Assembly: GCA_965200965.1 (NCBI GenBank)
Contig: OZ241744.1
Coordinates: 672,001 to 736,000 of the forward strand
From: an uncultured Candidatus Binatia bacterium
Lineage (GTDB): Bacteria; Desulfobacterota; Binatia; Bin18
Length of the DNA stretch: 64,000 bases
Direction: 5' to 3'
Both the position numbers and the translations under genes were made by a program. Each line of letters opens with the position of its first letter. The first letter of the stretch is position 1. The notes beneath the pieces were generated by a model, which worked only from the letters and a program-made list of their open reading frames with translations, was not told the origin of the DNA and made no database searches. Below, piece after piece: positions 5,157 through 15,813 of the stretch.

Positions 5157-5882
5157 TTATCGCCGGCCAAGCTGAACCGCCTCGGCCAGCTCGACTGTGC
5201 CGGTGTACAGGGCGCGGCCGATAATCAGGCCGTGGATGCCGTCGGCTTCATACGGCCGCAACCGCTCAACGTCTTCAAGACTGGCCACGCCACCAGAGGC
5301 AATAACAGGAATCTGCACCGCCCGGGCTACGGCCCGGGTGGCTTCGATATTCACTCCTTGCGCAGTGCCGTCCCGGACGATATCGGTGTACACAATCTCA
5401 CCAACGCCCAGAGCTTGGCACTGTGCGGCCAACTCGGTCGCTCCAAGCCCGGTCGTTTTGGTCCAGCCTTGGACGGCGACTTTTCCGGCCCGGGCATCAA
5501 TACCGACCGTAATCCGGCCCGGAAAGCGGCGGCACGCCTCGGCCACAAGGTCCGGCTGCCGACAGGCCACCGTGCCCAGAATGGCCCGCCGCACACCGAG
5601 CGAAAACACCCGCTCAATCGCCTCAAGGTTGCGCAGCCCGCCGCCGAACTGCACCGGGAGGTCAACGGCTCGACAGACCTTTTCTATGACCGCGGTGTTG
5701 ACCCCGGTTCCCGACACGGCCCCGTCAAGGTCAACGACATGCAGCCGCTCGGCCCCGGCACCCTGCCAGCGTCGGGCCACAGCGACCGGCTCGTCAGCAT
5801 AGACGGTCGCCTGATCCATATTACCCTGGTACAGACGCACACACTGACCGGCCTTGAGATCAATGGCGGGGATAATCTCCAT
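5157..5882 (-). CDS. hisA: ProFAR isomerase
   Basis: IIPAIDLKAGQCVRLYQG, LHVVDLDGA, GGGLR, IASGGV. Confidence 0.97.
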   Translation of the reverse strand: MEIIPAIDLKAGQCVRLYQGNMDQATVYADEPVAVARRWQGAGAERLHVVDLDGAVSGTGVNTAVIEKVCRAVDLPVQFGGGLRNLEAIERVFSLGVRRAILGTVACRQPDLVAEACRRFPGRITVGIDARAGKVAVQGWTKTTGLGATELAAQCQALGVGEIVYTDIVRDGTAQGVNIEATRAVARAVQIPVIASGGVASLEDVERLRPYEADGIHGLIIGRALYTGTVELAEAVQLGRR

Positions 5883-5888
5883 AGGGCT

Positions 5889-6533
5889 TCACAGCCGGCG
5901 GGAGTCGGTCACAAATTTGCCAAAGTTGGCCAGGATTTGCAGGCCGACCGTCTGGCTCTTTTCGGGGTGAAACTGGGTGGCAAAGATAGTGTCCGACCAG
6001 ACGCTTGAGGCAAATGGAATGCCGTACTCGGTGGTGGTGGCAACAATGGCCGGGTCTGCCGGGAGCGGATAGTAGGAGTGAACAAAATACACGGCCGCGC
6101 CCTCGGGCACATGGGCCAGATGGGGGGCCGACCGCTCAATGTGGAGTTGATTCCAGCCCATGTGGGGAATTTTGTGTGGCCCATCGTCGCTTATCAGCCG
6201 GGTCGGGTCAAAGCGCTCAACCGTGCCCTTGAGGATGTCCAGACCCCGCACCCGGCCAAACTCGTGGCTTTCTGAGAACAGAATCTGCATCCCGACACAG
6301 ATGCCAAGCAGCGGCGTGCCGGCGGCGGCCACCCGATGGACGGTGTCAATAAGCCGGCAGGCGGCCAGCCCGTCCATACACGCGCCAAACGCGCCCACGC
6401 CTGGCAGAATCACCCCCGCGGCAGCCTCAATCCGGGCCGCGTCACGCGTGATTTCAGCCGGGTAGCCCATCTTCTCGCAGCCTTTCTGCACGCTGCGCAG
6501 ATTGCCCATGCCGTAGTCAATAATCGCAATCAT
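5889..6533 (-). CDS. hisH: Imidazole glycerol phosphate synthase glutaminase subunit
   Basis: IDYGMGNLRSV, LPGVGAF, GICVGMQ, PHMGWN, QFHPEKS. Confidence 0.97.
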   Translation of the reverse strand: MIAIIDYGMGNLRSVQKGCEKMGYPAEITRDAARIEAAAGVILPGVGAFGACMDGLAACRLIDTVHRVAAAGTPLLGICVGMQILFSESHEFGRVRGLDILKGTVERFDPTRLISDDGPHKIPHMGWNQLHIERSAPHLAHVPEGAAVYFVHSYYPLPADPAIVATTTEYGIPFASSVWSDTIFATQFHPEKSQTVGLQILANFGKFVTDSRRL

Positions 6534-7116
6534 GCCCCATCCCCTTCAAAGCTGGCCGTCAAGTGGATCAAGGCCCTCCAATTCCCCTTCAGAACTGGCT
6601 CCAGTGTGTGAGATCTTCCTCTAATTCCCCTTCAGAACTGGCGTTGGTTACTCAGGAGTTCCTCTAATTCCCCTTCAGAACTGGCTTACCAAAGGCGGTG
6701 CTTCCTCTAATTCCCCTTCAGAACTGGCCGGTCGAGCCAGGATCTTCCTCTAATTCCCCTTCAGAACTGGCACCCGGAAGGGATGCAATCCTCTAATTCC
6801 CCTTCAGAACTGGCGCGAAAGAGGAAGAACACCCTCTAATTCCCCTTCAGAACTGGCACCCGGAAGGGATGCAATCCTCTAATTCCCCTTCAGAACTGGC
6901 CGGCAATCACGGTGTTGGCCTCTAATTCCCCTTCAGAACTGGCCCAGGCTTTTGATAGAGTCCCTCTAATTCCCCTTCAGAACTGGCCGGCAATCACGGT
7001 GTTGGCCTCTAATTCCCCTTCAGAACTGGCGTTGGGGACGAGACTGAACCTCTAATTCCCCTTCAGAACTGGCCTGCAGTGGAACGATGGACCTCTAATT
7101 CCCCTTCAGAACTGGC
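6532..7116 (-). CRISPR. Type V-C CRISPR array: 13 full 25-nt repeats plus 1 degenerate terminal repeat, 13 spacers
   Basis: Plus-strand repeat CCTCTAATTCCCCTTCAGAACTGGC starts at 6575 (1 mismatch), 6618, 6661, 6704, 6747, 6790, 6833, 6876, 6919, 6963, 7006, 7049 and 7092, with a degenerate copy at 6532-6556. Twelve spacers are 18 nt and one is 19 nt. Degeneration at the left end and an AT-rich leader at the right imply minus-strand transcription (crRNA repeat GCCAGUUCUGAAGGGGAAUUAGAGG). Confidence 0.98.
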
Positions 7117-7175
7117 TTATAGCAGATAACTATTTGTACTACAATCGGCTTCTGATTTTTCCAATGAGGATACTC
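7116..7175 (-). promoter_or_regulatory. CRISPR leader with candidate sigma70 promoter
   Basis: AT-rich 59 bp between the array and cas1; the minus strand reads TTGTAG-17 nt-TATAAG with an extended-10 TG. Confidence 0.55.
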
Positions 7176-8201
7176 ATGGCTGAAATTGATAAATTTCAAC
7201 ATCCAGATTCTATTTGGACATGGAAATCAACCAAGCGAGGCGGCAAGACGACCTTGTGGCTGCCCTATGTCTCTCAGGTAGACAGACTCAAAAAGAACCT
7301 CTGGCGGTTCACCTATAACGGGGGCGAGGTCGATACCGACCTGTCTCAGATTGAATGTGTCATGTTCTAGGGCGCGACCGGACAGATTCCCGTCGCGCTC
7401 ATTGACGACCTTTCCTCTCGCCGTGTCCCGCTCCTCGTTCACCGTCGCAACATCGGACGCCCGGCGGTTTTCCTGCCGGCACCCAGAGCCGATTCCGAAG
7501 ACATTTTGACAAAACAGATCGTTGCCCGAACAAATGAGTCCAAACGTGCTTACATCGCGCGGACGCTGGTACGCGAGCGTTTTCGGGCCGTAGTTCTGCC
7601 CATGCCGAGCACCGTCTACAAGCGGCTGGCGCGGGCGCGGAATCCTGGACAGGTACGGGTCTGGGAAGCCGAGCAATCACGCAGATATTGGCGGAGATAT
7701 TTCACTCAGCTGGGATATCCCGACGTGACACGCAGAGAGGGGGGACCTTTACCAGCGGCGCTTGACGCCGGTTCCATGTTCCTGTCCGGCGTTCTTTTGC
7801 GCTGGCTGCTCATCCACCGGCTTTCGCCCAGCCACGGCTTCCTGCATGAAGGGACCGACTACATGGGACTTGTCTACGACCTGATGGAACCGGCGCGGCA
7901 CATGATTGAGGAGGCTGTTGCCACGGCGTGCAGGGCTCATCCTCCGCAGGACGGTTCTGATTCGCTGACCAAAGCGGCCTTGTCCGCGCTGAAGAACGAT
8001 ATGGAGAAGGTTGTCTACGTTCCTGCTACCCGCCAGTTCGTGCGTCGCAAAAATCTGCTGCACGGAAACGTGCTGGCGCTGCGGGCCTACCTGGCCGGTG
8101 ATATGCGCCGGTTTGTCGTTCCTGTCGCGGGCGAACGCAAGGGCGGGCGTCCGCCGAAGGTTTCCTACCGGCTGCCGGGTGATATTCCTGCCGCAAGGTA
8201 A
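7176..8201 (+). pseudogene. cas1: Type V-C Cas1 with in-frame TAG at 7368-7370
   Basis: ORFs 7134-7370 and 7506-8201 share one frame. Read-through gives MAEIDK...LWLPY...IECVMF*GATGQIP...EAEQSRRYW...SPSHGFLH...LVYDLMEP (Cas1 E/H/D-type motifs); GAGGA RBS. Confidence 0.9.
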
Positions 8202-8318
8202 AAATGCCCCCCTTTGAAGGGCATCCCGTGCCTCCGGGGGGCGAGAGGCGGGGACGCCTTCCAGGTTGAGGTATGGATGATCAGTCCTTCGGCCTGGAAG
8301 GGAATGAGGGACTGTTGC
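8202..8318 (-). ncRNA. Candidate tracrRNA/scoutRNA of Cas12c
   Basis: Minus strand has UACCUCAA (8266-8273; CCUC pairs with repeat 3' GAGG) inside a 9-bp stem (8257-8265/8293-8301) and CCCUUCA (8215-8221; pairs with repeat UGAAGGG), ending in a hairpin plus U-tract. Confidence 0.75.
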
Positions 8319-11300
8319 TTATTTCCGCTTCCCGGTCAAGTCCCGAAGCGCCGCTCTTGACCTTTCCACATCAATCCGTTCCAGAAAGCGCCGGCCGATA
8401 TTGATCGCGGCGTTCTCGTCGGCATGACCCTCATAGCCACAGTCAAGGTACACGCAGGTGAAGCGAGATTGTGTGGTGTCTGGTGACATGGTAGACGACG
8501 GGGCTTGTCGCATGTTGCGCTTGACGAGGCGCTCAATATCGCGGCGTGGTCGGCTTTTTTTCTGAACTGGCACATTCAGCGGTCGTCTCTTCTTTTCGCG
8601 GCGAAACTTCTTGCACTCGCCGGGCGAATAATCAGTTCGTTCGAGAAGCCGTATCGTTCCGTCTTTAAGGGCAATGTGGCCGTCTTCCCCCACTTCGATC
8701 CTGTCTGGCATGGTGCGGAGCGCCTGAAGGGCGTTTCGGCCGCAACGGTGGCAAATCTGGCTGGTACCGGCGGGGTTCACTGTGACGCCGGGAAACATGC
8801 GGAGCGGCTTGGATGGGCCGGAAAACTGCCTTTTCTTGTTGTTCGAGGTGTGGATGTAGGAATGATCCCAGCTGTCCGCGGTAAACCAATGGTGGCGACG
8901 AACCGTCTTATGGGCCTCCACTTCGGAAAACGTGTAGCGACGCAGGACCGAACCGTAGATCATTTCCAGTTGACCGGCACCTGTCTCGAAGTTGACGACC
9001 GAGCTTTCGAGAACGGGAAATCCGCCGAAACGTTTGCACAGGGTCTCAATACGGTTGCAAATGTCGCCCACCACGTTTTCCCGGAAGCGCATCAGAGCCT
9101 TGGAATAGGTCTGGCCAACCTTCTGGTTGGGTTGACGTGAACCGCGGTGGCGACGGACCGCGGCCCTCAGTCTCCTGAAGGCAGGAATGGCGACGCTGCC
9201 GACCTCAAGCGGGTCCCGTTTGTTCTTTTCCACAAAGTCTCTCAGCGAGAAGACCGCATAGCCGATACGTCGCTCGCCAAGGTCTATGGCAACGATGTGG
9301 TCAAACAGAGATGGAGCTTCGGGAGACGGGCGGTCGTCAATGACAGGAATGGCAAGCTCGCCCCTGGTCTGCACCGGTTCTGCCGAGAGGCGTATCTGCT
9401 CACCTTCCAATTGCAAAGACTGTGTGAAAACCCGGTCGAGGATCAGCGTATAGTCGCCGAGTTTTATATTCTTGTCTGTCAGGGCGCGGTCGAGCCACGT
9501 CTTGAAGGAAGGCGGGCCGATCAGCCGGAAGGCCGGTTTTTTCGTGGCTCTCCAGCGTTTGAGTCCGCTTGTTGCGTTCTTCTTGACAGGGAGACCGGCC
9601 AGGGCCGGTGCTGTGCCGCCTCGGAGGTCGAGTTCGACATACCAGTCGTGGGGCGCTTGACACGCAGCAGGGCGCGCGTACCCGGCTCGGGAAACTTTGC
9701 CTTGCTCAAGCTCTGTGCTGTCTCGCACGGCAGAACGGCTTCGGCCTTGTCACGCATGACCGCGGAAAGCTCCAAGCCCTTGGATATTTCACCCTTGGCC
9801 GAAGAATAGTCCGCGGGCGGCTGCCAGGGGCGTTCCTTTGGGACATAAAACAATTCTTCGTGGTCAAGGCGCAGAAACTTCGTGCGCACGATGAAACCGT
9901 CACGGAATGCGCGAAACAACAGGCCCTTGATAGCGCTGTTGAACAGGTTGAAGGCGCGCATGGCTACATCACGCGAAACCTCCTCAACATCGAGTTGGGC
10001 GGCGAGCAGGGGAGGGATGTTGATGAAGACGATTCCCGGTTCCGGTTTTGCCAGATGGCCCGGTATACAATTGGGCAGACCGCCGAACCGTGTCGTCAGG
10101 ACAAACTCTTCTATCAACAGCAGATCGCGCAGAAGCGCATGGTCTGTGTTTGGAACCGCGTGCAGAGTCTTGCGGAGTTCTGTGGCCCGCTCCTCCAGCC
10201 ACGACAGCCAGTCGCTTGCGCGGGCGCGATCCATGTCGAGATCGTAAGCCTGGTGACGTGAGGTGCTGAAGGGATGCTGATAGAGGCTGCCCTTGCGGTT
10301 GTGGAAATAAAGGTTCGCTTCTTTCTTGTTGCGAAAGAGGGGCGTCATGGTGTCCCGGATTTGCTCGGCCACGCTTGGCGACAGCTGGCGCGACATGGCT
10401 CCGAGGCGGTTCAGCAGCCGCCGAAGTGCGTATTCAGCCGCACGAGCGGGTTTCATGCCACGGTCGGAGAGCGCCTTGTATTCGCGTTCTTCCAGAATAC
10501 GCCAGGGGTCAAGGCCGCCTGTATTGCTGTCGGCCCAGTCGGAGAGCCGCCGGAAGTGCTCGCGGCGCTTTTGCACGACTTCATTCAGGCCGGCTTTCAG
10601 GCGGCGGATCTCGCAGTCGGCATCGTCGGTTCCGCCTGATATGCTGTTCAGCTTGGGGGGCGTGAAATCCCTGGGAATGTCCTGCCTGAGCGATTCCAGG
10701 GCGTTTACACATTTCCCGTCTTGGGCGCGTTCGATTTCCTGCTGGATGTGGCTATCGAGCATGGCAAGTTGCCCAGCTAGTTCGGCCAGTTCGCCGGCGA
10801 CAGATTCAACGGTGGCGATATGCGCCGGTTCGGGAATATCGTCCCCGCTCAAGACAGCGAGCGCGGCTCCGGCCGTGTTGACCCGCTCAGGAATGCGACT
10901 GGAGAGGGCCCGAAGGCCGGCAGCATCGGTGTGCTGACCGGAAAACAGAAAGGCATTATCGGAGCCTTGCAGTTTTTCGGAGATAGTGATGTCCGGCGGC
11001 GAGGAATGCAGGTCGATCAGTTCACACAGGCGCTTCCAGTAGTTTGAGACCCAGGAGGCGATCTTGCCGCCAACGGAGCCGCGAAACTCGGCGTACCCAC
11101 GGGTGTTGAAAAACGGATTGTCGATGGGAATTGCGTCGGCAAAGGCTTTGAGTTGCGTGACCCGTCGCTGTTCCCCGTGTGGAACGACGAGGTCTTCCGC
11201 AATCTGCTTGATGTTCGATTTCCGAAGGTAGCCCAGGCCCTTGCCGAACAGCCAGGACAGGCCATTGTTCTGACCGGTGACAACACTGTCTCTCAGACTC

Positions 11301-12099
11301 CTTGCAAAATCACTCGAGGATGGGACAAGATCGGGCCTGTCTCGTTTCAGCCTGCCGGCGCAAACCGCTACGGCCTGATGCAGCCAGATTTCCTCGTTAC
11401 CGGTCATATCAACAAAGGGAGCTTCAGGATCGTAGGCAAGCGTACAGGAGTCCAGACCGGCTGTGGTTCCGGGTGGCAGGTTCCTGAGCTTCGGAAAGGA
11501 GTTGCCAAAATTCGCCAGATATTCACCGGCATGTGCCAGCGCGCCGGTTGCGTTGCCGGCGAGTTCCTTCCACCCGGAGAATTGGGCAGTGACTGTGTGA
11601 GCGATTCCTTGGGCCAGCAAAAATTCAGGCTGATCCTTCTCACCGTCTTTTGGCGGACGCTTGTTCCAGTCCTGAAACAGCCGTCGCGCCAGGGTGTCTG
11701 CCGACCACGCTACGGCCTTTCGTGGGACTGTGGCGAAGATGCCTTCGATTGATTGAATCGTAATGGCCGAGTTCCTGATTTCCGTATGGACGCGGAGGGC
11801 AGCGGCGAATGCGTCTTCGGGGTACCGGCTTCGGTTTCGGAACTGATGCGTCTCCCCGCCCTTGGAAAACAGGCGGAACCCGGATAGATGGACCGCGCAC
11901 ACCAAGCCGGTCAAGCTCCCGCGTGCAATCCCTTCGGTGATGTCATAGGTCCGAGTTGCCGCGGCAAAGTCCAAATCGCCGTCCTGGCGCTCAGCTTGAA
12001 TTTGTATGTAAAAACGCTTTCTTCCTGTCTCCGCGCAGCCGTTGCCACTTTGCGCCGCCAGTCACGCGCGTTCTGCCCACCGTGATATTCCCGTCTTAT
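8319..12099 (-). pseudogene. cas12c: Cas12c (type V-C effector), about 1260 codons, split by frameshifts near 11992 and 9660
   Basis: Three ORF pieces join into one protein: NARDWRRKVA...FKL, HLSGFRLFSKGG, NGLSWLFGKGL, FRGSVGGKIASWVSNY, QAPHDW, RuvC-I IVAIDLGE, RuvC-II FPVLES, Zn-finger CHRC...CVYLDC, RuvC-III HADENAAINI. Confidence 0.9.
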
Positions 12100-12328
12100 A
12101 CCTCTCCCAACTCGTCTGCTGAAAAGTTTTCCTACCGTAGCCCAAACATCGGATTTGAAACAAGCAAGGCTGGGAATCAAGCCGCCGGCACCGGAAGCGG
12201 GCCACACGCTCCCCATTATGTTGACGATGAGCCTGGACGTGGTATCCAGACACTTGGTAGAAAGGCGAATGATGCTCTCTTCCTGAGGGTATCATCGTTC
12301 ACCTTTAGGGGCGCGGGAGGAAGAAGGC

Positions 12329-13495
12329 ATGGCCGCTTCTATCAAGGATCAGGTCGCTGTCATTGGGACCGGCTGCATCAAGTTTGGCGATAATGTTGAC
12401 CAGGGCTATGAAGAGATGGTGGTTGAGGCGGCGTCTGCCGCTTTTGACGACGCCCAGGTCGGCCCCGACGAGATTGATGCCGGCTGGCTTGGCACATATT
12501 CGCCGGCCCAGGGGCACGGCAAGGCCGCGGTGTCGCTGGGTGATGCGCTGCGGTTGTACAACAAGCCGATCTCCCGGGTCGAGAATTTTTGCGCCACCGG
12601 AACCGACGCCTTCCGCCACGCGGTCATCGCGGTTGCGGCCGAGCTGTACGATATGGCCCTGGTGCTGGGGGTGGAGAAGTACAAAGACCGCCCGGGGCAT
12701 GGCTTGGCACGCGAGGGCGTACACCCTTACCATAACGACGGTTCGACCGCGCCTGGCCTGTTTGCCCTGGCTGCCACCCGGTATATGCATACCTATGGCC
12801 TGACCCGTGAGAGCCTGGCCAAGGTGTCGGTCAAAAACCACTACAACGGCTCGCTGAACCCCAAGGCGTATCTGCAAAAGACCGTCTCTGTCGAAGAGGT
12901 CTTGACTGCGCCCATTGTGGCCTATCCGTTCGGGTTGTACGACTGCTGCCCGACGACCGACGGGGCGGCCGCGGTGGTGGTGTGTCGCTCAGACTTGGCC
13001 AGAGAATACCGGGACGACTACATCCTGGTGAAAGGGGTCGGTCTGGCAGTGAGCAGCGGCCGGCCCTTTATGGACCCGGGTTACGATTACCTCGGCTTTC
13101 AGGCTACCGAGCACGCCGCAGCCCAAGCCTACGCGATGGCCGGCATCAGCGACCCGCTCACCGAGATTGACGTAGCCGAGGTCCACGACTGTTTCACCTG
13201 GACCGAAATCACCAACTATGAAGACCTCGGCTTTGTCCCCAAAGGCCGCGGCGCGACCCTGATTGAAGAAGGGCGGACCGCCCTCGACGGTGATATCCCG
13301 GTCAATCCGAGCGGCGGCCTCAAGTCGTTTGGCCACCCCATCGGGGCCAGCGGGGTGCGCATGGTGTATGAGATTGTGAGCCAGTTGCGTGGCCAGGCCG
13401 GCCCGCGCCAAGTCCAGGACCCCCGGCTGGGCCTGGTTCACAACGTTGGGGGGCCGGGCGCGGTGTCGTGCGTGGCCGTGCTGGGCCAGCCCTAA
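12329..13495 (+). CDS. Thiolase (SCP-x/archaeal-type acetyl-CoA acetyltransferase)
   Basis: VENFCATG, CCPTTDGAAA, AEVHDCF, NPSGGLKSFGHPIGASG. Confidence 0.9.
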   Translation: MAASIKDQVAVIGTGCIKFGDNVDQGYEEMVVEAASAAFDDAQVGPDEIDAGWLGTYSPAQGHGKAAVSLGDALRLYNKPISRVENFCATGTDAFRHAVIAVAAELYDMALVLGVEKYKDRPGHGLAREGVHPYHNDGSTAPGLFALAATRYMHTYGLTRESLAKVSVKNHYNGSLNPKAYLQKTVSVEEVLTAPIVAYPFGLYDCCPTTDGAAAVVVCRSDLAREYRDDYILVKGVGLAVSSGRPFMDPGYDYLGFQATEHAAAQAYAMAGISDPLTEIDVAEVHDCFTWTEITNYEDLGFVPKGRGATLIEEGRTALDGDIPVNPSGGLKSFGHPIGASGVRMVYEIVSQLRGQAGPRQVQDPRLGLVHNVGGPGAVSCVAVLGQP

Positions 13496-13507: not shown

Positions 13508-14193
13508 ATGCCTGCAATTGTTGACGAAATCTGCGAACGTGCCCTTGAAATCGTTCCCCAAGTCCCGTGGCTGGTTGAGCCGCTGACGCCCGGGCGCGGG
13601 CGGGCCTTCATTTTGCAGCATATTCTGCGCAACCGCCTGTTCAGCGCGGTCATCCGGCCGGCCTGGATCAGCCGCTGCCCGGACTTGGCCGTTGTGCGGA
13701 AAACCATCGGCCAGATGCGCGAAGAGCTGGTATATGATGACGAGATTGCGCAGCCCCACACCACGCTGCTGTGGCAGATGGGCCGCAATGTGGGCCTGAG
13801 CAACGAGCAGATGGATACCACCCGGCCCGTTCCGCTGGTCCATGTGGCCCTGAGCGTGTGGGAACACATCGCCCGCACCCGGCACTGGGTGGCTGGCTGG
13901 CCACCTCGGTTGACGAGTTCATCCTGACCGCTCTGCCGGGCGAGCATAATTTTCGGGCTGAAGCCTGGAAGCAGACCTTTGATCTGAACGATGAGCAGGT
14001 GTTCTTCTTCAGCTACCACATCAGGGCCGACGACGACCACGCCGGCCGCAAGGTCTGGGAGCCGATCGCCCGGCATATGACCACCGACCGCGACCGCCAG
14101 GAAGTGATTGAGGGGATGGAGTTGGCGCTTACGGGCTGCACGCTGTTTTATCAGGGCATCTGCGAACTGGGAGACAAGCTCGATGCCGACTAA
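13508..14193 (+). pseudogene. Heme-oxygenase-like diiron (CADD/TenA/PqqC-like) protein, frameshifted near 13900
   Basis: REEL...QPHTTLL in one frame, VDE...FFSYHIRADDDHA in the next; restoring one CTGG unit rejoins them. Confidence 0.6.
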
Positions 14194-14959
14194 CCCCCAG
14201 CTCAAACGTCTGGTCGATCTGGCCGCGCCCTACTGGGCCGGCGAGGCCGAGGTGGTCTGGACGTATTTCCAGAGTTCCAGCCGGACGACCGCTACTGAGT
14301 TGGTATGGCTCCGCCGCCAGTGTTTTAAGGAGATCTGGGGCTCCGGGGTCGGGGATAAGAAAAAAGGGCTGTTTCAGGGTCCGGTGGCCTATCTGAGCCA
14401 AGTCTTTGAGCAGATTGACCGGCAGGTTGATCGTCACACCGTACTCGACGTTATTGACGACCTGCGCACCGAGTTTGCCCATTACTGCCTGTTTGCCGAT
14501 ATCCATGACTGGCTGAGCGGCGAGAAGCTGCACCCGGGCCAACTGCGCGGCTGGCCGGCCGACGACGAGCTGGCCCGGCTGCGCTACGAGTACCGCGAGC
14601 GGCGTGGCCGGCTGGGCTATTTTGCGGTGCGTTTTACCGAGGGCGGCTACTGTAGCATGTACTCGGCCGGGATGCGGCTGGCCGGCTCGGGCCCGCTGGG
14701 CGACCGCATCGCCCGGGCCTGTGAACAGGTCTACACCGACGAGATTGGGCACATGCGGGCCGGCTACGCCGGTCTGGCCCGGCAGCGGCTCGCCTCAGCC
14801 GAATGGCAGGATATGGCCTACATGGTCCGCAAGATTCTGCTGCAACGCCTGCATATGCGCAACGAGCAGTTCAGCCATCCACTGTCGGCCGGGCGTATCC
14901 GGACGATTGACGCCGGCGACATCACGCCGATGGAGTTTGATTACAACGGGCTGGATTAA
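14183..14959 (+). CDS. Ferritin-like diiron-domain protein
   Basis: TEFAHY, FTEGG and DEIGH (ExxH pairs); overlaps the upstream stop. Confidence 0.55.
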   Translation: MPTNPQLKRLVDLAAPYWAGEAEVVWTYFQSSSRTTATELVWLRRQCFKEIWGSGVGDKKKGLFQGPVAYLSQVFEQIDRQVDRHTVLDVIDDLRTEFAHYCLFADIHDWLSGEKLHPGQLRGWPADDELARLRYEYRERRGRLGYFAVRFTEGGYCSMYSAGMRLAGSGPLGDRIARACEQVYTDEIGHMRAGYAGLARQRLASAEWQDMAYMVRKILLQRLHMRNEQFSHPLSAGRIRTIDAGDITPMEFDYNGLD

Positions 14960-14983: not shown

Positions 14984-15813
14984 ATGGAACTGGTAGCCTT
15001 GGACAAACAGGACCGGATCGGAACGCTGACGTTCAACCGGCCCGAGAAGCTGAACGCTATGAATCCGGCGCTGTTGGACGAGTTTTCCGAGGCAATTGCC
15101 TCGGTTGGTACCGATGAGGAGATCAAGGTTCTCATCATTCGGGGCGCTGGCCGGGCGTTTTCGGCCGGCTATGACTTGGCCGGTGGCGGGGGGGCAAAAA
15201 CGGTGGATGCTGACCGGACCGCACTGCAAAGATGATCGAACGCTGGCTCAGTCTGCGCGAGCTGCCCAGGCCGGTGATTGCACGGCTACTGCTTGGCCGG
15301 GGCGAGTCAACTCCGCGCCTGCTCGGATGTGATTTTTATGGCCGATACCGCCCGGTTCGGCTTTCCGTCGCTGTCGGCCGGGCCCCCGGCTTTGTGAGTT
15401 CAATGTGGAACTGGCTGGTTGGACCGCACCGGACCAAATACATGGCGTTTTTGCCCGGCAGCCAGCTCAGCGGCAAGGAGGCTGAGGCGATGGCTTTTGC
15501 CACCTGGACCTTTCCGGCTGAAACCTTAGAGGCCGAAACCTACCAGTACGCCCGGCCGGTGGCCAAGGTGCCGGAGGAGTGAATGTGTCGCCTTCCTCTT
15601 GACCTGATAACACGTTCACTCCTTGCGGAAAAGCTGTGGCTGGAAAAACTGGCCATCAATCGGGCGATGGACCTCCTGGGCTTTCGGACTGCGGTCCTGG
15701 CCGGGGCCGAGTACGACGCTATTTTTCACTTCGGCTCGGGCAATGACGAGATTCGGCGGGTCAGAAAAGAGCGCGGCTTGCACGGCGCAATCCAGTGGTA
15801 CGAAAAGCACTAG
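14984..15813 (+). pseudogene. Enoyl-CoA hydratase/isomerase, multiply frameshifted
   Basis: LTFNRPEKLNAM, GAGRAFSAGYDL, LPRPVIA and EKLAINRAMD spread over several frames. Confidence 0.8.
15575..15623. repeat. About 50-bp inverted-repeat insertion inside the hydratase pseudogene
   Basis: AGGAGTGAATGTGT (15575-15588) versus ACACGTTCACTCCT (15610-15623), 13/14 complementary. Confidence 0.6.

Follow-up and report, generated by a model that had tools for sequence, protein, structure and literature searches.

How does a CRISPR system that has only Cas1 beside its effector choose spacers flanked by a protospacer adjacent motif (PAM)? The two-protein systems of types V-C and V-D do so without Cas2 and Cas4, and no answer was found in the literature searched. 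In the same literature, which was drawn mostly from outside subscription journals, no report was found on self-targeting or PAM choice in V-C uptake. Here we describe a type V-C locus in a 64-kb window of the genome of an uncultured Candidatus Binatia bacterium (GCA_965200965.1, contig OZ241744.1, positions 672,001 to 736,000). It is a natural knockout, with the effector lost, Cas1 kept and nine independent uptake events that used one PAM. In the reading that we favour, with a probability of about 0.65, Cas12c was broken by frameshifts that a sister strain has too, after which both strains went on acquiring spacers via Cas1 alone, choosing TA. The self-targeting spacers and their TA PAM are the main point of the locus and had been missed in a sequence-only reading of the window.

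The evidence begins in the array. Coordinates are positions in the window unless a contig is named; G000 is the window's own genome and C1 its contig, G004, G007, G014, G033, G034 and G035 are genomes of the same family, and X1 and X5 to X11 are sequencing runs. All five leader-side spacer slots match the host genome exactly, namely in proC (twice), a SAM (S-adenosylmethionine) methyltransferase gene, an F420-type LLM oxidoreductase gene and gyrB, and the eight older slots have no match with zero or one mismatch in the own genome. X5 and X6, from another study, share the array with the window up to 6814, and all five leader-side slots differ. The five leader-side spacers of X5 are again exact matches to the window's genome (5/5). 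TA stands at -2/-1 on the 5′ PAM side of nine out of nine distinct self sites, with the T at -2 that is expected for V-C. Of the genome's dinucleotides 2.2% are TA, and T is followed by A in 11% of cases; the chance of nine TA flanks is about 1e-15, or 3e-9 if the T is given. Shuffled spacers find a match in the genome at a rate of 1e-4. The nine targets are scattered over both strands, eight of them within genes and including gyrB and a DNA polymerase III alpha-like gene, as random uptake would give. A prophage origin of the self-targets is ruled out, for they lie in ordinary chromosomal genes. By their sequences, those of X5 are DNA polymerase III alpha-like, acyl-CoA dehydrogenase-like, amidohydrolase-like and gltD-like genes and an intergenic site. 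One target of the window's strain and one of X5 are 3.6 kb apart (G000:C1:3479174 and 3482814), by an uptake hot spot or by chance.

Array, cas1, a candidate trans-activating CRISPR RNA (tracrRNA) and cas12c occupy 6532-12099, between hisH (identified by NCBIfam TIGR01855) and a thiolase gene that starts at 12329, and the same gene content is found at the V-C locus of G004, G007 and G014. The 25-nucleotide repeat occurs in 13 copies at 6575-7116 (12 exact, one with one mismatch) with 13 spacers, twelve of 18 and one of 19 nucleotides, as expected for V-C with its repeats of about 25 and spacers of 17-19 nucleotides. The CRISPR RNA (crRNA) sense is the minus strand, on which the repeat ends in GAGG. 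No gene of the size of cas2 or cas4 lies between array, cas1 and effector. The latter is read from the minus strand in three pieces (12099-11983, about 11985-9660 and 9659-8319), which retain DLGE, VLES and ADENAA. The Cas12c model NF033950 gives 503.6 bits for the C-terminal and 484.6 bits for the middle piece (cut-off 250), against 78.7 and 18.4 bits for Cas12d, below its cut-off of 250, and 38.1 bits for TnpB; PADLOC concurs with the Cas12c call. Cas12d, TnpB and Cas12e are ruled out as effector identity by profile scores, and judged by its sequence the locus is an inactivated member of type V-C. In all these features, from the lone cas1 and the intergenic tracrRNA candidate to the three-piece effector and the repeat end, the sequence-only reading was right. 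The two outcomes it had named as adverse, a better score to Cas12d or TnpB and near-identity to a solved Cas12c, were looked for, and neither was found. An intact allele reaches 510 bits to Cas12c2 and 400 bits to Cas12c1 over 1260 amino acids.

Aligned end to end to these two proteins, the effector has the RuvC acidic triad, the CCCC zinc finger and two PAM arginines. Of 47 homologues, 44, 47 and 45 conserve the residues that correspond to Cas12c2 R137, R351 and Cas12c1 N299 (Asn); 41 of the 47 (P0002 apart) are full-length and 55-82% identical to the intact allele. The effector is a distant V-C member that by score is closer to Cas12c2; it may cut like Cas12c1 or only bind like Cas12c2.

Four lesions inactivate the locus: a lost start codon and two frameshifts in cas12c and a stop in cas1. 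The cas12c start codon at 12099-12097 is ATA, where intact alleles have Met. One base is missing at 11985-11987, where natural intact alleles read KLSAQDGDLDF or KLSVQDGDLDF, and two bases are in excess at 9660, where the intact reading is LLRQAPHDW. Codon 65 of cas1 is TAG only in the window's type and TAC in X5, X7 and X8. The estimate of about four edits for a repair was thus correct, and so was the proposal to remove GT near 9660; an added nucleotide near 11992, giving KLERQDGDLDF, is not what nature has. In the window's strain, however, the system is dead. A contig of X1, which may be the source sample, shows 0 differences and 0 gaps to the window over 7001-12400. Both frameshifts are kept in X5 and X6 and neither is present in X7 and X8. 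An assembly error behind the breaks is ruled out by the identical X1 contig together with the lesions common to X5 and X6, and the Cas12c gene is a real pseudogene. A depth-2 contig of X11, from a third study, is identical over 8717-10626, which is weak if taken alone.

In the 90%-identity cluster that includes the window's C-terminal piece, five of nine members are intact proteins of 1256-1261 amino acids, and the window's pieces are, piece by piece, 95-99% identical to these five alleles. Intact Cas1 alleles of 341 amino acids and 99% identity are also on record. With intact natural alleles at hand, the reconstruction of the broken one, which the sequence-only reading had recommended, is needless, and anyone in search of an editor would gain nothing from the broken allele that its intact siblings do not offer.

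Which came first, the frameshifts or the self-spacers? The two frameshifts and the old spacers are shared with X5 and X6 and the new spacers are not, so that the loss of Cas12c probably predates the self-spacers. We propose that the frameshifts arose in the common ancestor; guide processing and interference would have been lost with them, and chromosomal spacers would no longer have been harmful. Cas1, probably with host nucleases, would then have cut TA-adjacent pieces of 17-19 bases and inserted them at the leader in one fixed orientation, until the later cas1 stop froze the array in the window's lineage. Chromosomal pieces, the bulk of the cell's DNA, could persist in the array without interference. 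A live Cas1 next to a dead effector is supported by one contig of 3,603,827 bases, which is listed both for the same two Cas12c pieces and for intact Cas1; in its 817-residue Cas12c piece, 19 of 19 residue differences fall at codons where X5 differs.

Intact relatives served as controls. In G007, with intact cas12c and cas1 at the same site, none of 49 distinct spacers matches the own genome exactly, whether searched whole or in four pieces; applied to the window's own genome, this search finds all four sites. For G035 the count is 0/4. Among 64 spacers of relatives searched against the window's own genome there are three one-mismatch matches, which were taken as chance. The G007 array gave no full-length spacer match in the 55 family genomes among the matches checked by position.

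Several observations weigh against the favoured order of events. X7 has no frameshift, and two of its eight listed spacers match the window's chromosome exactly with the flank TC; for one of the TC-flanked spacers, which has two sites, TA is present at the opposite end of one of them, and its insertion may be flipped. The intact G004 has one 17/18 self-match, flanked by TT, among five distinct spacers, and G014, with cas12c broken and cas1 intact, has none among six. The I-E array of the window's genome, with full-length cas genes, holds four exact self-matches among 223-224 spacers, two with an AAG flank, so that some self-spacers can be tolerated in this host even where no lesion is visible. 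Between the frameshifts, 29 changes are listed that separate the window from X5 (10424-11642); recombination has therefore touched the gene, and the event order rests on parsimony. In X5, array and effector are spread over three overlapping contigs (depth 15-18) instead of being joined on one. Furthermore, the 817-codon frame of the middle piece retains PAM-reading residues, the genome has other cas1 and cas4-like genes, and TA-flanked self-uptake is known from two lineages only. A foreign protospacer that confirms TA for intact systems was not found, two of seven old spacers having been searched in viral contigs, one of them with TA added.

Some of these points would suit the reverse order, in which an intact but non-cutting or inhibited Cas12c chose the PAM of the self-spacers, these did little or no harm, and the frameshifts were selected later as an escape and spread between the lineages by recombination. 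Enzymes of the Cas12c2 type bind DNA but do not cut it (bioRxiv 2021.12.06.471469). Mutation of cas genes is a well-known route of escape (PMC6990116) and has been offered as the reading of the fragmented CasY locus (PMC6509639). The self-matches of X7 and of the I-E array are tolerated, and cas12c is a mosaic. We nevertheless regard this order as unlikely. Two lineages would each have to survive four or five successive self-spacers, including gyrB and dnaE-like targets, although silencing of essential genes by Cas12c harms growth (bioRxiv 2021.12.06.471469), and both would then have to acquire the same two lesions 2.3 kb apart. The absence of self-matches in the intact G007 (0/49) also argues against it.

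If Cas12c was lost first, what read TA? A strict PAM and orientation after effector loss are the unexpected part of the finding. Self-spacer build-up after loss of interference resembles the case of dead Cas9, where loss of cleavage turns uptake toward the chromosome (PMC6990116), and such spacers also accumulate with mutated cas genes (PMC6990116); with dead Cas9, however, the effector that sets the PAM is kept, whereas the window locus encodes no full-length one. In types V-A and V-B the PAM is set by Cas4; uptake does not need Cas12, which has no PAM role (PMC9419969). With no full-length Cas12c, Cas2 or own Cas4 at hand, Cas1 is most likely the TA reader. The 17-19-base length of the new spacers also points to the V-C Cas1, given that the other arrays of the genome have spacers of 29-45 bases.

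One might instead suppose that TA is read by a leftover fragment of the broken Cas12c, in a supporting role for Cas1 like that of Cas9 in type II-A. Within the 817-codon frame lie the PI and REC1 domains and the conserved equivalents of R137, R351 and N299; AGGA precedes the TTG at 11974, and another TTG overlaps the TGA at 11913-11911 and could permit a restart. Expression of the fragment is only putative, however. It is devoid of the first 40 residues and of RuvC and stops inside WED, before the tracrRNA-holding residues (Arg849-Lys857 of Cas12c2; PMC9522604), and the PI domain is disordered as long as no PAM duplex is bound (PMC9522604). As Cas12a and Cas12b do not set the uptake PAM either (PMC9419969), we consider a role of the fragment quite unlikely.

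The window's genome has six cas1 genes and six arrays in 3.6 Mb. Besides V-C, its systems are by eye I-C-, I-B-, I-E-, II-C- and III-B-like; two of the other loci show cas4-like sequence, also by eye. A Cas4 or a whole uptake module of one of these systems, or of a phage, could in principle supply the V-C array with TA-flanked pieces. Apart from the V-C locus, the genome offers five cas1 genes and five arrays for this, and a phage Cas4 has been proposed for fragmented CasY (PMC6509639). But the five other arrays carry spacers of 29-45 bases, against 17-19 for all nine new ones, and their seven exact self-matches among about 478 spacers (7 sites) show no TA at a fixed side. TA/TG is moreover the PAM of V-D, which shares the Cas1-only module. 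Such outside help is very improbable. As an observation apart, the AAG-flanked self-matches of the I-E-like array (G000:C1:2819952-2833583) lie at C1:1890485 and 222867, far from the leader; their targets are ilvC-like and cdaA-like genes. A further spacer of this array has its match at 2069144, in a cas5-like gene that belongs to another CRISPR locus.

Could the self-spacers be retained for the regulation of host genes, with the split Cas12c pieces reassembling? The idea was raised for fragmented CasY (PMC6509639), and catalytic and PAM residues do survive in the pieces of the window. The two strains, however, have no self-target in common, their sites are distributed over both strands and away from promoters, and the gene is still accumulating lesions, as seen at its start codon. 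This explanation is hardly credible.

Cas1 as the TA reader can be taken one step further. Tentatively, and with doubt slightly heavier than support, we suggest that the V-C Cas1 is a self-sufficient PAM reader, which needs no Cas2, Cas4 or effector to measure 18 bases, read 5′-TA and set the orientation, perhaps via its C-terminal GGRPP tail; the arrays of the two sister lineages would be a record of this, and the effector PAM would have had to follow the integrase. The tail (8130-8180) is invariant or nearly so in 85 V-C-type homologues and is modelled with high confidence as an extended strand. Its sequence is similar to the core of an AT-hook. The Cas1 fold is supported by a structure model (predicted local distance difference test 89.6) and by a fold search; no PAM pocket was seen in the model or in the fold search, where no V-C Cas1 was among the structures listed. 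The V-C Cas1 mini-integrase (Wright et al. 2019, via PMC9419969, PMC13034035 and PMC6977970) is, as at the window locus, free of Cas2 and combined with short spacers and repeats. It is reported to integrate as a tetramer with weak site specificity, and the passages that cite it are silent on PAM choice.

A comparison with known systems indicates which parts are new. Cas12c2 (PDB 7V93/7V94; PMC9522604) and Cas12c1 (PDB 7VYX; PMC9723637) have the same domain order, RuvC D-E-D residues and zinc-finger cysteines as the window effector. They are also alike in two PAM arginines, a 25-nucleotide repeat ending in GAGG, three short repeat-tracrRNA duplexes and cas1 as the sole other gene, whereas the window allele is broken. 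The PAM is TN for Cas12c2 and TG for Cas12c1, compared with the natural flank TA at the window locus. At the position of Cas12c1 N299, which reads PAM -1, the window effector has Asn and Cas12c2 has Thr. An intact system would resemble these two, with a tracrRNA-bound effector, trimming of pre-crRNA by RuvC and a DNA target that is bound or cut at its TA (or T-purine) PAM.

The closest parallel is the fragmented CasY of type V-D in Roizmanbacteria (PMC6509639), which shares with the window locus a Cas1-only module, a three-piece effector with catalytic residues, PAM-correct self-spacers and other CRISPR systems in the cell. There, 12 of 22 spacers are self-matching, with TA as PAM in seven cases and TG in four. 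The combination of a fragmented effector with PAM-correct self-spacers is therefore already published for V-D, and the pattern itself is not new. The V-D-like traits of the window locus, the TA PAM and the Cas1-only uptake, are shared with V-C and hence give no V-D assignment. Fragmented CasY differs in its type, in coming from one population and in having self-spacers also at the old end. Its authors invoked a Cas4 from a phage and an escape from autoimmunity; the accessible sections contain no order of events and no PAM reading by Cas1. The window locus, on the other hand, has lesions common to two lineages that differ in their new spacers; it passes abruptly from non-self to self spacers, and TA flanks all nine sites (9/9).

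Table 1. Features of the type V-C locus (positions in the 64-kb window).
Feature	Position	Strand	Remarks
Degenerate terminal (trailer) repeat	6532..6556	-	9 mismatches to consensus at 43-nucleotide register; overlaps hisH start codon at 6533
Older array part	6557..6875	-	8 spacer slots, 7 distinct
Leader-side array part	6876..7116	-	5 spacer slots, 4 distinct: 6901-6918, 6944-6962, 6988-7005, 7031-7048, 7074-7091
AT-rich leader	7117..7175	-	between array and divergent cas1; resembles leaders of four relatives
cas1 (V-C kind)	7176..8201	+	341 codons, in-frame TAG at codon 65 (7368-7370); metal-binding E164, H220, D235 present
Predicted tracrRNA (scoutRNA)	8200..8306	-	repeat-pairing segments 8304-8301, 8271-8268, 8221-8215, then T-rich end
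cas12c C-terminal piece	8319..9659	-	end of WED, RuvC I-III, zinc finger; 98-99% identity to 4/5 intact alleles and, over a longer stretch, 95% to the fifth
cas12c middle piece	9660..11985	-	PI, REC1, REC2, part of WED; 817-codon frame from TTG 11974; ends at 2-base excess at 9660
cas12c N-terminal piece	11986..12099	-	start codon ATA; one base missing at about 11985

The remaining features of the locus are collected in Table 1. The segments of the tracrRNA candidate are predicted from sequence to pair with repeat positions -4 to -1, -11 to -8 and about -17 to -11. A three-duplex layout of repeat and tracrRNA has been described for Cas12c2 (PMC9522604). The candidate is conserved in five genomes, and in G014 and G035 a change in the repeat is matched by one in the third segment, a compensatory change that counts as one evolutionary event. 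No Rfam family matches the candidate. A promoter consensus scan of 6400-8500 gave nothing that passed, there was no RNA sample among the runs listed for the locus, and a repeat scan and a protein scan of JGI metagenome contigs gave nothing.

Within the window array, spacers are duplicated two units apart (5 = 7 and 8 = 10; 6772-6875 and 6901-7005), and the leader end of G007 has the same pattern. G004 (L020:13876-14541 and 12767; L079:545-613) carries one spacer in about ten tandem copies and, at the 3′ end of cas1 next to the tracrRNA candidate, a repeat-like copy; its hisH-hisA is inverted, with a repeat before hisH, and elsewhere it has a second leader with a two-repeat array. In G007 (L080:538-562) a lone V-C repeat, flanked by two copies of a 30-base direct repeat, lies inside another gene region. 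At the other end of the window array, the terminal repeat at 6532-6556 abuts the hisH start in the region 5157-6533, and its purine-rich core could be a ribosome site. In G001, hisH has the thiolase gene 114 bases upstream and a promoter-like site, and in G003, G005 and G006 a HicB-like gene is found upstream of hisH. The CRISPR locus takes the hisH promoter slot in G000 and G007, so that hisH-hisA may be transcribed through the array.

A V-C match was found in seven of the 55 family genomes, and 54 homologues are listed; the rarity that the sequence-only reading had ascribed to such systems does not apply in this lineage. Among the seven, G004 and G007 appear whole, the effector is broken in G000, G014 and G033, cas1 is internally deleted in G035, and only a remnant is left in G034. 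Decay of V-C is common in this family. Two neighbouring genes of the window, TenA-like (13508-14199) and enoyl-CoA hydratase-like (14984-15810), are frameshifted as well; G004 or G007 has them whole. Four samples with the locus are labelled as sponge metagenome, and the host is likely a sponge-associated member of the Binatia.

For the large Cas12c group, whose short spacers usually hide their targets, the locus offers a natural PAM. If our interpretation of Cas1 is true, a single small integrase that reads the PAM would bear on the origin of CRISPR memory, and it might become useful as a compact DNA recorder.

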